Below, piece by piece: positions 1 through 13,503 of a stretch of DNA of 14,579 nucleotides; the stretch's first letter is position 1; each line of letters begins with the position of its first letter. The notes beneath the pieces were generated by a model. It worked only from the letters and a program-made list of their open reading frames with translations. It was not told the DNA's origin and ran no database searches. The stretch is taken from IMG/VR virus record IMGVR_UViG_2529293240_000014. One strand, given 5' to 3'. Made by a program: the position numbers and the translations under genes. Source of the DNA: a virus. Lineage: Duplodnaviria > Heunggongvirae > Uroviricota > Caudoviricetes.

Positions 1-480
1 GTGGCGGACCTGACGTATGTTGCCACACAGGAGGGATGGTTGTACCTCGCTGGCATCAAAGATGTTTATACGTGCGAAATTGTCGGCTACGCCATGGGAG
101 AGCGCATGACAAAAGAGCTGACAGGTAAAGCCCTGTTTATGGCGCTCAGGAGCCAGCGCCCACCTGCCGGGCTAATCCACCACTCTGATCGAGGTTCACA
201 GTACTGCGCATACGATTACCGGGTCATACAGGAGCAGTTTGGTCTGAAAACATCAATGTCGCGTAAAGGTAACTGTTACGACAACGCTTCGATGGAAAGC
301 TTCTGGGGAACGCTGAAAAATGAGAGCCTGAGCCACTATCGTTTTAATAACCGGGATGAAGCCATCTCAGTAATACGGGAATACATTGAGATTTTCTACA
401 ATCGTCAGCGTCGTCACTCTCGTCTGGGGAATATCTCCCCGGCAGCCTTCAGGGAAAAATATCATCAGATGGCTGCTTAA
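1..480 (+). CDS. IS3-family transposase OrfB, C-terminal fragment (5' end outside window)
   Basis: Translation carries integrase-core motifs typical of IS3-group OrfB (HHSDRGSQY, SMSRKGNCYDNA, YNRQRRHSRLG). Stop at 478-480. Confidence 0.85.
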   Translation: MADLTYVATQEGWLYLAGIKDVYTCEIVGYAMGERMTKELTGKALFMALRSQRPPAGLIHHSDRGSQYCAYDYRVIQEQFGLKTSMSRKGNCYDNASMESFWGTLKNESLSHYRFNNRDEAISVIREYIEIFYNRQRRHSRLGNISPAAFREKYHQMAA

Positions 481-522
481 AAAAAGAACAAATGGTAGTG
501 TCCGCTATTGCCTGTACACCTC
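1..522 (+). mobile_element. IS3-family insertion sequence, 3' portion only (IS600-like); the window begins inside the element
   Basis: ORF 1..480 encodes the C-terminal DDE transposase core (HHSDRGSQY...MSRKGNCYDNA...). The adjacent minus-strand endolysin frame diverges from endolysin-like sequence at about 520-523, which places the IS end there. Exact end not resolved. Confidence 0.65.
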
Positions 523-600
523 AGTGATTAACACAGATGCTATAGCAACAGCCCCGCCACCAATAGCAACTGCAACAGCCTTGCGTAATGATGGCGACAT
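523..600 (-). pseudogene. SAR endolysin (phage 21 R-like lysozyme), N-terminal ~26 codons only, truncated by the IS insertion
   Basis: Minus-strand ATG at 600-598 overlaps the holin stop (TAATG). Translation [26 protein letters not shown] is a signal-anchor-release N-terminus; the frame then reads into IS-derived sequence and stops. Confidence 0.6.
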
Positions 601-815
601 TATTCACCTCTCGCAGCCTTACGCTTGTCTTCTCTTATTTTGAAATACAGATTCGTCAGATAAGTCAGAAGCCCCAGAAGCAGACTTCCCAGCACACCAA
701 TCGCAGCCCACTGTGACGGACTGACCTGATCAAGCCACTGTAAAAGCCAGTAGCCGGCACTGCCGGCGGAGGTGCCGTAGGCAATGCCCGTTGACATTTT
801 GTCCATAGATTTCAT
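600..815 (-). CDS. Class II holin / pinholin (phage 21 S-like, EssD-like), 71 aa
   Basis: Start ATG at 815 preceded by GGAGGTGAGG. Translation [71 protein letters not shown] with dual-start motif (M1/M4) and two TM segments. The ORF-track extension to 902 has no RBS and spans a terminator hairpin. Confidence 0.85.
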
Positions 816-875
816 AACCTCACCTCCGCAAATAACGGATGGCGTAGCTTTACACTGAGAGACGAAAAGGATTTG

Positions 876-898
876 AAAAAAAGCCCGCAAAAGCGGGC
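876..898 (-). terminator. Intrinsic terminator just upstream of the holin gene
   Basis: Plus-strand aaaaaaa-GCCCGC-aaaa-GCGGGC; on the minus strand this is a GC-rich 6-bp hairpin followed by a 7-U tract. Confidence 0.5.
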
Positions 899-1106
899 GC
901 AACGGAATCTACAGTAAGGAAAGCACTCTATCCAACAAAACACCCACAGTTAATCGGAATAAAAGCAGAGTGCTTATGAATGATCGCCTGCCCGAAGGTT
1001 GGTATTTCTGCACAGCAATTTTGCAAAAAAGACGAGCATTCAAAACGCAAACGTCTTTCAGTCACTCCGTGCTTTCCCATCATCGCAGACTGAAAGACTT
1101 TAACTT

Positions 1107-1178
<72 letters not shown>

Positions 1179-1181
1179 ATA

Positions 1182-1257
<76 letters not shown>

Positions 1258-1259
1258 GC

Positions 1260-1336
1260 TGGCCCACCACCGAGAACTCGAACCTCGCACCGTCAACTTA
1301 GAAGGTTGATGCTCTATCCGGATGAGCTAGCGGTGG
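1260..1336 (-). tRNA. tRNA-Arg (anticodon UCU, reads AGA), phage argN/argO-type
   Basis: Reverse complement folds as a cloverleaf: acceptor CCACCGC/GTGGTGG (one G-U), D-arm GCTC/GAGC, anticodon stem TCAAC/GTTGA with loop CTTCTAA, T-loop TTCGAGT, encoded CCA. Confidence 0.75.
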
Positions 1337-1337
1337 T

Positions 1338-1414
1338 TGGTGGCCCTTGCTGGACTTGAACCAGCGACCTGGCGATTATGAGTCGCTCGCTCTGACCAAC
1401 TGAGCTAAAGGGCC
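1338..1414 (-). tRNA. tRNA with CAU anticodon, ileX/ileZ-like (tRNA-Ile2, lysidine type, reads AUA); Met cannot be excluded
   Basis: Reverse complement GGCCCTTTAGCTCAGTTGGTCAGAGCGAGCGACTCATAATCGCCAGGTCGCTGGTTCAAGTCCAGCAAGGGCCACCA. Perfect acceptor stem, loop CTCATAA, T-arm GCTGG-TTCAAGT-CCAGC; close to E. coli ileX as recalled. Confidence 0.8.
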
Positions 1415-1502
1415 GGAGGCAGAATAATAACCATATGTCATCACATCTGCAAACTCATCTGACCACCAGCACGTTTAACGTCCTGTGCCGTTTTTCAGGT
1501 AT

Positions 1503-1527
1503 AAAAAAACCCGCATAAAGCGGGCTC
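1503..1527 (-). terminator. Intrinsic terminator downstream of Q (tR'-like)
   Basis: Plus-strand aaaaaaa-CCCGC-ataaa-GCGGG; on the minus strand a hairpin followed by a 7-U tract, about 80 nt downstream of the Q stop. Confidence 0.55.
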
Positions 1528-1603
1528 TTTCAAATGTCCATGTCTGCTATTCGCCTCGCGGTACAGCTTTGCGAAGCGTACAAGAATTGAAGCAGTTTTT
1601 ACG

Positions 1604-2158
1604 TCAAAAAGCAATAACTTTTTTCTCTATACCAAAAGCCATAACCATTGGTTTGTACAAAATAAATTCTGCCACCTTTAGCCAATGCTCAATGCGTCTT
1701 TCACAGGTTCTTAAACTCCATTTCGGGTGTGCATCATTCAGCAGTTCAGCCATTTTGCGTTTGGTCATCCCCCGCCCCTCATACCGTTGCCGAAGGACGC
1801 TAATCAATCCTGGATGCTCTGCCAGCACCTCACTTATGACCCGATCAATACATAACGCCTCTGCATCAGTACAATGCGCCAGCCAGCTCTTTTGCTTACC
1901 GTTAATCATATCCCGCAAAAAAGCCTCAAGTTCAGACTTGTTCAGACCTGCTTTTTTCATCCTCCGGAGCGCCTCGTTAATTGCCGTTTTTGTCAGCTTT
2001 TTAGAGGTCAACATCAGGTTAAACATATTCCCCGTCTTACCGCCACCAATATACGACCAGCGCCCCCACATACGTAGTTTTCCCTGAATCCAGACACTTT
2101 CCAGCGTGGTGAGACGAAGGTGTTCTCCGCTTTTTCCTGTATTCGTTGGGTAAATCAT
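1604..2158 (-). CDS. Late-gene antitermination protein Q (lambdoid Q-like), 184 aa
   Basis: ATG at 2158 preceded by AAGGAGGG and overlapping the upstream stop (ATGA). Lies directly upstream of the terminator, tRNA cluster and holin; family assignment is from recalled similarity and synteny. Confidence 0.7.
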   Translation of the reverse strand: MIYPTNTGKSGEHLRLTTLESVWIQGKLRMWGRWSYIGGGKTGNMFNLMLTSKKLTKTAINEALRRMKKAGLNKSELEAFLRDMINGKQKSWLAHCTDAEALCIDRVISEVLAEHPGLISVLRQRYEGRGMTKRKMAELLNDAHPKWSLRTCERRIEHWLKVAEFILYKPMVMAFGIEKKVIAF

Positions 2159-2613: not shown

Positions 2614-2621
2614 TGAAGTGG

Positions 2622-3790
<1,169 letters not shown>

Positions 3791-3862
3791 TGGAGCACCT
3801 GTGTTGTTCTGAGGTGAGCATATCACCTCTGTTCAGGTGGCCAAATTCAGTGTGCCACTTCA

Positions 3863-4296
3863 CGGCTACCGTCCGGATAAAAATGCTCGGTGTAAAATCC
3901 GGCCTGAATGGCTACCCACTCGCGGAAAGCCTCAAACGACTTTAGCAAAGCCGTATCACGGGTTCTGCGTGTCGCAACTGTATTCAGATATTGCTCTGCG
4001 GCTTCGCTCAGAGCTGGCGTATGTTCCCGGCCTACTGATTCACACAGGTAATCAACGAAACCGGACACCAGTTTTCGTTCGCGAGGCGTGATCGCCCCAC
4101 CGACCGGAGTCCAGTAATCGAAACCCAGTTGCAGGAGTTTGAAAAAACGCTTGTGGAATGCGTAGTTACGCACACGCTTAAAGTCTGCGTGTATCCACTC
4201 ACCTATTTTGATTTGATGCAGAAAATCGCAACTCTCCGGCGTCGCCGGGAGAAGTAATCCGGAAGAGGTTTGTTTGACCAGTTGTATATGTGCCAT
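3863..4296 (-). pseudogene. YbcN-like (DUF1367) gene, 5' fragment interrupted by IS911
   Basis: ATG at 4296 preceded by GGAGAAAG. Translation MAHIQLVKQTSSGLLLPATPESCDFLHQIKIGEWIHADFKRVRNYAFHKRFFKLLQLGFDYWTP... resembles DLP12 YbcN; the frame runs into the IS911 end at 3862. Confidence 0.75.
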
Positions 4297-4871: not shown

Positions 4872-5027
4872 TTACTTCCTGGATTCGTAGTCTACGAAGA
4901 CAGCGACCTCCGTCTGGCCGGTTCGGATTCGTACCTCACAGAGGTCTTTCCTCGTTACCAGCGCCGTCACTATGACGGTTAAACAGATGACGATCAGGGC
5001 GATTAACATCGCCTTTTGCTGCTTCAT
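4872..5027 (-). CDS. hok: Hok/Gef-family type I toxin (HokD/RelF-like), 51 aa
   Basis: Translation MKQQKAMLIALIVICLTVIVTALVTRKDLCEVRIRTGQTEVAVFVDYESRK: single TM helix plus conserved C-terminal Hok motif. ATG at 5027 preceded by AAGGAG. In-frame upstream ATGs at 5054 and 5084 give a mok-like overlapping frame. Confidence 0.85.
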   Translation of the reverse strand: MKQQKAMLIALIVICLTVIVTALVTRKDLCEVRIRTGQTEVAVFVDYESRK

Positions 5028-5034
5028 AGCCTGC

Positions 5035-5105
5035 TTCTCCTTGCCTTTCGGCATGTAAGAGGCTAACCTACATGTGCAAAGCATGAAATTGGCCTCAGAT
5101 TAATG
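5035..5105 (+). ncRNA. Putative Sok-like antisense RNA opposite the hok/mok translation-initiation region (inferred, boundaries approximate)
   Basis: Inferred from hok/sok architecture: the antisense regulator lies opposite the mok start (5054-5084). A possible plus-strand promoter is TTGCCT (5041-5046), 17 nt, TAACCT. Not directly demonstrable. Confidence 0.25.
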
Positions 5106-5254
5106 TTAAGCGTCTTGCCGGACGCGTAATGTTAACTGGGGCTTTTCTCTATCTGCCTTTTGGTGTTCATGCCTGAAGCAGATAGCCTCAAGCACCCGCA
5201 GTCATTCTACTTACCTCGCCAATATGAAATCAATCAGAAAGGTGCCCCATAAAA

Positions 5255-5941
5255 TCACTCCTTCTCTTCTTTACCGTAGTGGAGTTGACCAATTTTGATA
5301 AGAGGGCGTCCCTGAGATTTGCGGTGTAGATTGGTATCGCGCAGAGAATACACACAGCCACAATATTCCTGCTGATAGAATTTTTCGCGCTTGCTGATTT
5401 CAATCATACGGGACGAGCCGCCCTGCTTGCGCCAGTTATAATCCCAGTACACCATGCCCGGATAATGCGCGACGGCTCGCCGCCCACAGTCGTTAACCTG
5501 CTGCATATTTTTCCAGCGAGAAATGCCCAGTGAACTGCTGATCACACTGAAACCATTTTCAGCGGCGTACAGCGCTGTCCGCTCAAAACGCATGTCAAAA
5601 CACATGGTGCAACGGATCCCTCGTTCGGGCTCCCATTCCATTCCTTTGGCTCGTTCAAACCAGTTGTCTGTGTCGTAATCAGCATCAATAAACGGCACGC
5701 CGTGTTGTTCAGCAAAGCGAATATTCTCATCCTTACGAATTAAATACTCTTTCTGAGGATGAATGTTCGGGTTGTAGAAAAAGATGGTGTAGTCGATTCC
5801 CGAGGCCTGAAGCGCCTCCATCACCTCACCGGAACATGGAGCACAGCAAGAGTGCAGTAGTAGTTTGTTTGCCCCGTTTGGGAGCTCCAATTTGGGCCGT
5901 TTGAAATCAGCAACTGTCATAAATATGTTTATTGGGGTCAT
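5255..5941 (-). CDS. queH: QueH-like epoxyqueuosine reductase (DUF208 family), 228 aa
   Basis: Translation has the DUF208 hallmarks: [11 protein letters not shown] near the N-terminus, [23 protein letters not shown], and C-terminal QEYCGCVYS. No obvious SD before either candidate start (5941 or 5920). Confidence 0.8.
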
Positions 5942-11836: not shown

Positions 11837-12354
11837 ATTCATTTCCTTACTGGTTGTGTGAGAACTTCAGTAAAGATACCACCAAAGCCCGGAGGTGGTG
11901 AAATAAAACCGGGCACAACACGAAGGCGCATTTCCGGTATCCATAAAGAGTCGGTCTTGTCTGTGAAATTTAAATGGTGGGAGTGCGCTTCCGGTTGTAA
12001 ATAACGACATTGCTGTGTGAAGTACCAGTTGGCGGCATCGGTTTAATTGCTGGCTGATGTCCGCCCTTTTTAAAGTGAATTTTGTGATGCGGTGAATGCG
12101 GCTATGCGCACGCGGCACAGTTAAAAGTCATGTTAGTCCTTATTGGTTTGGGTGGGAAAGCCAACTGTAATTGTTAACTGGTTAACGTCACCTGGAGGCA
12201 CCAGGCACCGCATCAACAAAGTTCACTTCGGTGATGAAAGGAAAGAGAAAATGTTGAATGTAGCTATTGAAAACCAGAACGGGTGGAATTATAGTGCACC
12301 TGCACCTCATAAAACGGGTGCCGGGATTGCTACCCCGACGATGACTACTGCGCA

Positions 12355-12378
12355 TAACCGCGCTCAGGCGGTTTTTTT
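12355..12378 (+). terminator. Terminator-like hairpin plus T-tract inside the Rha upstream extension (possible attenuator)
   Basis: AACCGC-gctcag-GCGGTT followed by TTTTT. Lies between the strong upstream RBS/ATG (12251) and the Rha-domain start (12545). Confidence 0.3.
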
Positions 12379-12544
12379 ATGCGTCAAGCACAGCCACATT
12401 CAGATTATGGTGGGGCGTGCAGGGCAGCCGCAAGGCTGGCCGGTTTCGGTAGTCACCGGTTGTAGCAACCCTGTGCGTCTCACCACCCATGAGATTGCTA
12501 CCTCTGGTGGTGAGTTATTTAAACTGACTATCGAGGCTGCCATC

Positions 12545-13099
12545 ATGGCTACTATCCTTACCCTTTCTCACCCTGACGTAACCATCGAAAATGGTCGCGC
12601 TGTCACTACGTCTGTTGCGGTTGCGGAGTTCTTCCGGAAAATGCACAAAAACGTTATTCAGAAGATCGAAACTCTCGAATGCTCGCCGGAGTTTAACCGG
12701 CTTAATTTTAAGCCCGTCACCTATACCGACGCCAAAGGCGAAAAACGCCCAATGTACCAAATCACCAAAAACGGCTTCGTTTTCCTGGTGATGGGCTTCA
12801 CTGGCAAAAAAGCCGCCGCATTCAAGGAAGCCTACATTGCTGAGTTCGACCGCATGGAGGCCGAACTGCGCCAGAATAACACCCCACCTGCTGACAAGAT
12901 GATTCCGGGTGATGGTCGCACTCTGGTTGTTCACTTCGACAAATTCGGCAATGTCGAATTCACCGAAACCGTTCCTGATGGCGCACTGGTCTGTACCCTG
13001 GAGACTTTCCGGTTTTATCTGGAAAAACAGGGATGGACTCTTGTTAACCGGGGCGCAATTAAAAATATGACTGTGGAACAATTACTTTCTTTAAAATAA
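12545..13099 (+). CDS. Rha-family phage regulatory protein; start ambiguous (12545, or 12251 with a 98-aa N-terminal extension)
   Basis: Rha-domain motifs AVTTSVAVAEFFRKMHKNVIQKIETL...KRPMYQITKNGFVFLVMGFTGKKAAAFKEAYIAEFDRME. ATG at 12545 preceded by GAGG; the in-frame ATG at 12251 has a stronger AAGGAAAGAG site. Confidence 0.7.
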   Translation: MATILTLSHPDVTIENGRAVTTSVAVAEFFRKMHKNVIQKIETLECSPEFNRLNFKPVTYTDAKGEKRPMYQITKNGFVFLVMGFTGKKAAAFKEAYIAEFDRMEAELRQNNTPPADKMIPGDGRTLVVHFDKFGNVEFTETVPDGALVCTLETFRFYLEKQGWTLVNRGAIKNMTVEQLLSLK

Positions 13100-13397: not shown

Positions 13398-13503
13398 TTA
13401 ACTGACTATTCGAAACTGAATTTATGCCAGCAATGGCAGGGATTCGCTCAACCTTAATTAAGGAGAAAAACATGAACACCAATTATGAGGTAATGACTCC
13501 AAC

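Follow-up and report, generated by a model that had tools for sequence, protein, structure and literature searches.

What does it mean when a prophage keeps an apparently intact, potentially lethal holin gene beside an endolysin gene that has been cut away: is the holin retained for some function, or is the locus a passing stage of decay? This question is raised by one end of the DNA analyzed here (the window, 14,579 nt), which is identical to contig AFOW01000008.1 of the assembly GCA_000217895.2. Beyond the left end of the window, the contig continues for 351 bp and terminates within IS600. The strain, J1713, is taken here to be Shigella flexneri, an assumption based partly on its name. In a table of Shigella spp. 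strains, the accession GCA_000217895.2 is assigned to J1713 (PMC6397287). The locus very probably marks where the late genes begin in a cryptic prophage of S. flexneri J1713, lambdoid (DLP12/Qin-like) and in decay, in which IS600 cut the endolysin gene R and left the holin gene S untouched, as part of an IS-driven erosion.

The sequences show how the locus is built, what each part is, where precisely IS600 joins R, and that this junction is also present in other strains. Read along the minus strand, Q is followed by a tR'-like terminator, the cluster of four tRNA genes, another terminator, S, the remnant of R (R'), and IS600. The features are as follows.

1-523, plus strand: IS600 (IS3 family), right-hand 523 bp; 98.5-99.6% identity to annotated and other IS600 copies, with rve domains.
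524-600, minus strand: 5' end of the SAR-endolysin gene R/rrrD, of which 25 codons plus 2 nt remain; 26/26 residues match an E. coli lysozyme and 23/26 match phage 21 R.
600-815, minus strand: S21-type class II holin (pinholin) with a dual start, 71 aa; PF04971, E = 2.6e-35.
823-827, minus strand: GGAGG ribosome-binding site, 7 nt before the first holin ATG; aligns with the annotated ribosome-binding site of phage 21 S.
876-898, minus strand: intrinsic terminator, GCCCGC-TTTT-GCGGGC followed by T7; terminator scan, fold of -13.7 kcal/mol, z = -2.55.
1107-1414, minus strand: four tRNA genes, Met/Ile(cat), Arg(tct), Thr(tgt), and Val(tac); ARAGORN, Rfam, and annotation in relatives.
1502-1532, minus strand: tR'-like terminator, GAGCCCGC-TTTAT-GCGGGTTTTTTT; fold of -18.7 kcal/mol, z = -4.9.
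1604-2158, minus strand: intact Q-type late antiterminator (DUF1133/Phage_antitermQ), 184 aa; PF06576, E = 2e-107.
2614-3862, minus strand: IS911 in a DUF1367 gene, with a 3-bp CGG direct repeat; 99.8% identity to annotated IS911.

The holin gene encodes a 71-aa antiholin from the ATG at 813-815 and a 68-aa holin from the ATG at 804-806, and its stop codon TAA at 600-602 overlaps the start of R (TAATG). Against the Pfam model PF04971 (Phage_holin_2_1, "Bacteriophage P21 holin S"), for which the cut-off is 26 bits, the protein scored 120.6 bits, and the match covers positions 1-63 of the 64 in the profile. Its identity to S of phage 21 is 93%. The five differences (I7M, F24L, V46L, F49L, and R64K) are conservative, and three of them, F24L, V46L, and F49L, exchange one hydrophobic residue for another. 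Holins of this family have two transmembrane segments. The small residues G40, G43, S44, and G48 are important in the second one (TMD2) of S21, and all four are invariant in the comparison with S21. The MKSMDK start is that of phage 21, for which both products are annotated, and Met1-Lys2-Ser3-Met4 is kept. By every criterion that can be applied to its sequence, this is an S21-type class II holin. The substitution I7M creates a third in-frame ATG (MKSMDKM) at holin codon 7 (795-797, minus strand), which is also present in the holins of intact cassettes.

In each of the 10 genome contexts listed, the gene for this 71-aa protein has a lysozyme gene (165 aa) and spanin genes as its neighbors. At the DNA level, the holin region is 100% identical over 522-921 to two relatives with an intact cassette (L002 and L007). 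One of these, CP125938 (L007), shows 98-100% identity to the window in each 100-bp bin up to position 1921, including both terminators, the tRNA genes, and most of Q. The co-occurrence of this allele with intact cassettes suggests that it is functional, and the insertion of IS600 looks recent. The first-pass annotation, which was made from the sequence alone, had described a holin with its ribosome-binding site, dual start, and full reading frame, and had named inactivating changes relative to functional homologs as the observation that would speak against it. The PF04971 match and the alignment with phage 21 confirm the description, and no inactivating change is visible in comparison with the alleles of intact cassettes, to which this allele is identical.

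The remnant of R retains 26 residues when the first base of the IS is counted. They are followed by the IS-derived residues EVYRQ and a stop codon, and the result is a chimeric ORF of 31 aa at 505-600. The 26 residues are all identical to those of the intact 165-aa "lysozyme RrrD" of E. coli CFSAN029787, and 23 of the 26 are shared with the SAR endolysin of phage 21. The Gly/Ala-rich N-terminal signal-anchor-release segment is present in the remnant (residues 1-26). The structures 3HDE and 3HDF serve as the yardstick for what has been lost. All catalytic sequence is gone from the window, because the soluble active form of R21 (PDB 3HDF) spans residues 27-165, which are all absent, and only residues 1-26 are kept. 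The remnant ORF showed no Pfam match, and it lacks the muramidase domain (GH24, PF00959) by which a member would be recognized. The R fragment is therefore best classed as a pseudogene remnant and not as a member enzyme.

Most of what the first-pass annotation had claimed for this gene is borne out. All the features that it named in the cassette lie at its coordinates or a few bases away, and the matches that identify them greatly exceed chance expectation. It placed the cut by an IS after about 26 codons, in agreement with the two alignments and with the junction at 523/524. The alignment with phage 21 R that it had proposed as a check establishes the identity of the SAR domain through the 23/26 match. 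The TAATG that it gave at 598-602 is correct, with the same geometry as in phage 21. A complete endolysin frame, which it had considered as a possible result of re-annotation, is not found in the 14,579-nt window. Its statement that the prophage has no endolysin can be upheld for this locus alone, as the contig ends within IS600. The image of a "decapitated" cassette is wrong; the promoter-proximal gene survives and it is the distal part that is cut.

The IS3-family element to which the cut had been attributed is IS600, and the alignment of the IS end fixed the junction at 523. The best E. coli match of 1-523 showed 98.5% identity over 523 bp and carries the RefSeq label "IS3-like element IS600 family transposase". 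The 3' end of orfB occupies 1-480 on the plus strand (stop at 478-480), and the corresponding 159-aa ORF contains the integrase-core domains rve, rve_3, and rve_2. The right terminal repeat finishes with ...ACACCTCA at 523 (longer end sequence: ...GTACACCTCA). This right end reads ...CCTCA, and the complete IS600 copy in E. coli FDAARGOS_943 (NZ_CP065615; L001) opens with TGAGG and is flanked by a CAC duplication; the left end of the copy in the window lies beyond the contig. The junction was fixed by alignment with both intact and independently disrupted relatives, and the end of IS600 falls after the second base of R codon 26. The alignment of the intact relatives starts at 522, and therefore the terminal CA is common to IS600 and the target. 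The lysis feature that had been drawn from position 481 is present, but this start takes in 43 bp of IS600. Since orfB is convergent with the lysis genes, it may be speculated that its transcription could run antisense to R' and S.

The source assembly is a draft and the contig stops inside IS600, and thus a mis-join at a repeat could be suspected as the origin of the junction. Such an assembly artefact is extremely improbable and can be set aside, because the junction recurs in other assemblies. A look-up of the chimeric 31-aa ORF revealed the identical junction on five contigs, two of which are from GCA_902502115.1 and GCA_902504875.1, and the same junction is present in one IMG/VR contig (L026). 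These contigs share both the 31-aa ORF and a SNP in the IS end, T at 513. The contigs from the look-up are short and all end in the IS. A search for the exact IS600/R' junction in one-genome-per-species contigs gave no match. Two of the other assemblies (L003 and L004) and L026 show 99-100% identity to the window over 399-1499 and 57-75% over 1500-2000, where they carry a different Q allele. The same junction together with a different Q allele would be read most simply as one insertion followed by recombination between prophages.

Whether IS600 merely interrupts R, so that the remaining 3' portion of this gene, then Rz/Rz1 and the morphogenetic genes, follow on its far side, or marks an IS-mediated deletion or rearrangement, is a matter on which the relatives point in both directions. 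FDAARGOS_943 has exactly the architecture of a simple insertion, at an independent IS600 event in the same gene, and the IS911 of the window is itself a clean insertion with a 3-bp duplication. Against this stands L026, the only assembly in which the far side can be read. There, the first 75 bp of IS600 are missing, and the element adjoins pieces of other IS transposase genes. Positions 1-1021 of L026 contain fragments of HTH_23-type and HTH_Tnp_1-type transposases and then a partial ORF with a weak DUF4376 match, and no remainder of R is found within 1 kb past IS600. The far side in L026 is a nest of IS elements, not the rest of the lysis cassette. Furthermore, viral contigs gave no match to the left junction that a simple insertion should have produced (R, any 5 bases, and the IS600 left end), and in L020, one of the S. 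flexneri relatives, unrelated genes lie beyond the IS600 copy inserted in S. A simple insertion in J1713 is possible but rather doubtful.

Upstream of S, the layout is that of a lambdoid late operon: Q, the tR'-like hairpin, and the lysis genes follow one another on one strand. Q matches PF06576 over 176/176 model positions, with PF06530 as a further match at E = 8e-7, and the DNA of the Q region is 100% identical to CP125938 over 1522-1921. The tR'-like hairpin lies 72 bp downstream of Q and is followed by a T-run. None of 200 shuffled sequences folded as stably, and its position agrees with the annotated pR'-tR' layout of phage 21. The late promoter is assumed from synteny and from the 100% identity with the intact relative, because a sigma-70 consensus scan for pR' in the interval between tR' and Q (1532-1604) gave no match; this interval is 100% identical to that of the intact relative.

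A sigma-70-like site (TTTGCA-18 nt-TATTAT) is located at 1453-1424 on the minus strand, just upstream of the tRNA cluster. The four tRNA genes may constitute a transcription unit of their own, nested in the Q-dependent late operon. No feature could be assigned to the stretch of about 210 bp (899-1106) that separates the last tRNA gene from the second hairpin. The second hairpin (883-898) sits downstream of the tRNA cluster and 5' of the holin gene, is followed by the T7 run, and belongs to a terminator (876-898) that is identical in CP125938 and has no homology to phage 21. Because of the sigma-70-like site, this terminator probably ends the tRNA transcripts, and it would insulate S unless a Q-modified polymerase reads through.

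As the terminator of the lysis cassette, the hairpin 883-898 was rejected owing to its position 5' of S on the transcribed strand. The first-pass annotation had counted a terminator as part of the cassette; the hairpin is real, but it is a read-through terminator upstream of S and not the cassette's own end.

Further upstream, IS911 lies 456 bp before the start of Q. It is bounded by CGG repeats at 2611-2613 and 3863-3865, and its flanks are contiguous in relatives. IS911 is a second lesion, on the path that transcription would take to reach Q.

Elsewhere, the window contains an early lambdoid region with Rem, hok/sok, a QueH-like gene, DUF977, a DnaC-like gene, YdaT, Cro, and a cI-like repressor, together with another IS3-family element, IS1, and an integrase fragment. 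The hok/sok type I toxin-antitoxin system occupies 4872-5197 on the minus strand, with a sok RNA at 5022-5197 (117 bits) and a 51-aa HOK_GEF ORF at 4872-5027. The QueH-family gene (5255-5920, minus strand; 221 aa; PF02677) in the early region encodes an epoxyqueuosine reductase-like protein. On the plus strand, isrK (12302-12378) and a C4 antisense RNA (12403-12490), both at the Rfam gathering level, lie inside the 5' part of a Phage_ASH/pRha antirepressor-like ORF (12251-13099). This arrangement resembles the c4/ant immunity module of the P1 type, and the start of the ORF is probably over-called.

The behavior of a pinholin without its endolysin can be projected from phage 21. S21-68 forms heptameric pinholes of about 2 nm, which collapse the proton motive force, and S21-71, produced from the dual start, is the antiholin; SAR endolysins are freed and activated by the depolarization that S21 causes (PMC9636201). 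When S21-68 is expressed alone, cell integrity is kept (bioRxiv 10.1101/2021.04.20.440580). With IS600 in R, only the membrane signal-anchor segment is encoded and the muramidase domain is missing from the transcription unit, and the cassette would be unable to lyse the cell. During normal growth S is probably silent, as it lies behind two intrinsic terminators and would require a Q-modified RNA polymerase. Q itself is situated downstream of both IS911 and an apparently intact cI/Cro immunity region, which would make expression still less likely. If Q were expressed, the pinholin would be expected, by analogy with S21, to depolarize the inner membrane and to arrest growth or kill the cell without lysing it. 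On the same analogy, Q-dependent expression may plausibly be toxic, and with pinholin and Q both intact, artificial or superinfection-driven expression of Q could arrest cells without lysis. The present state would be one moment in the erosion of the prophage by IS elements, neutral or mildly advantageous, and no "holin-only" module that has evolved as such.

Prophage genes in Shigella are commonly disrupted by IS elements, and the relatives of this prophage are no exception. S. flexneri relatives, including AE014073, which is presumably strain 2457T, show 99.3-99.5% identity to the window over the early region and carry IS600 in the DUF1367 gene and IS911 in Q. Each lineage has broken the same prophage differently, since in the window it is IS911 that lies in DUF1367. 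Two S. flexneri relatives (L020 and L023) contain at 13400-13500 a second S21-like allele (MYQMEKISTG...), which is cut by IS600 after codon 30, with the IS in the same orientation as in the window, and unrelated genes follow the IS600-cut S. Three independent IS600 junctions in S or R are thus seen in this comparison: at R codon 26 (the window, L003, and L026), 32 bp further into R in FDAARGOS_943, and at codon 30 of S.

Three independent IS600 events in S and R could reflect selection rather than neutral decay. According to Leuzzi et al. 2017, as reported in PMC7918800, S. flexneri with restored DLP12 SRRz/Rz1 releases more peptidoglycan and its virulence is mitigated. On this model, the insertion in R would be an adaptive knockout, as a working S-R-Rz raises peptidoglycan release and over-stimulates host innate immunity in Shigella or EIEC. 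The published effect, the independent insertions, and the presence of the same junction on two different Q backgrounds all fit such a pathoadaptive loss. The published work, however, concerns the DLP12 cassette, which belongs to a different prophage, and Shigella genomes are full of IS copies. FDAARGOS_943, the only record of the E. coli collection with a comparable IS600-disrupted R, was matched at 35 places by the query 1-1500, of which the IS600 end is a part, whereas the median genome was matched at 3. The same prophage is also struck by IS elements in Q, in DUF1367, and elsewhere, as drift predicts. An adaptive knockout is accordingly judged unlikely; the three events are anecdotal cases in line with the published proposal that lambdoid lysis functions are being lost from Shigella.

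A function of the orphan pinholin for the host is a much weaker candidate. S might serve without an endolysin as a Q-triggered non-lytic suicide or abortive-infection switch, or as a modulator of vesiculation. S, its ribosome-binding site, the dual start, both terminators, and Q are indeed intact and identical to those of functional-looking relatives. In addition, vesiculation was about 2.4-fold higher in a K-12 DLP12 mutant that had the holin but neither endolysin nor spanin (PMC7918800). The 100% DNA identity with intact cassettes, however, fits a recent insertion and carries no signal of selection, and IS911 lies between the early promoters and Q. Sister strains have lost S, which IS600 interrupts after codon 30, and Q, into which IS911 is inserted, and because of these losses the orphan holin looks like a snapshot of decay and not like a retained function. 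For the same reason, the importance that the first-pass annotation had attached to a holin kept without an endolysin was overstated. Such a domesticated pinholin is therefore considered highly improbable. An equally slim chance is given to the combined proposal that the recurrent IS600 insertions in S-R, in Shigella and in an IS600-rich E. coli, reflect selection against the SAR endolysin during intracellular adaptation, with the pinholin of J1713 kept as a Q-dependent, depolarizing, non-lytic suicide or abortive-infection switch. IS-driven decay is the preferred reading of the locus. Its value is mostly one of annotation: it records how the cryptic prophage of J1713 lost its lytic capacity, and it supplies clean coordinates for the IS600 junction.

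Among characterized systems, S21-R21-Rz/Rz1 of phage 21 (GenBank OL657228) shares with the window the gene order, the one-base overlap TAATG, the Met1/Met4 dual start, and the GGAGG ribosome-binding site. In both, tRNA genes are located between pR'/tR' and S, but the window has four of them whereas phage 21 has two, of a different set. The window differs from phage 21 further in the truncation of R after codon 26 by IS600, in the extra terminator just upstream of S, and in the type of Q, which is DUF1133 in the window and Q21 in the phage.

The intact E. coli cassettes of CFSAN029787 (CP011416) and CP125938 are closer. Their holin is 100% identical to that of the window, their DNA agrees at 99.6-100% between the junction and the far end of the tRNA cluster, and in CP125938 the identity reaches through most of Q. 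Downstream, both continue with genes for the 165-aa lysozyme, the spanin, the terminase, and the portal protein, where the window has IS600. FDAARGOS_943 shares with the window the element, its orientation, and the gene that was hit, and the flanking prophage is 96-98% identical. Unlike in the window, its IS600 lies 32 bp further into R and is flanked by the 3-bp CAC duplication, and a spanin gene and the remaining 3' portion of R are found beside the IS; both halves of R are labeled as pseudogene fragments by PGAP/RefSeq. That the junctions of the window and FDAARGOS_943 represent one event was considered and rejected on the 32-bp distance.

The cassette essD-ybcS(rrrD)-rzpD/rzoD of DLP12 in E. 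coli K-12 is likewise of the S21 type, controlled by Q, and carried by a defective lambdoid prophage. DLP12 is a different prophage at a different chromosomal site, and its module is intact and transcribed, whereas the window keeps only the holin. The loss of DLP12 lysis function in Shigella has been treated as pathoadaptive (PMC7918800). All components of the locus, namely the S21 pinholin, the R21/RrrD SAR endolysin, IS600, IS911, and the Q-dependent late operon, belong to well-described families.
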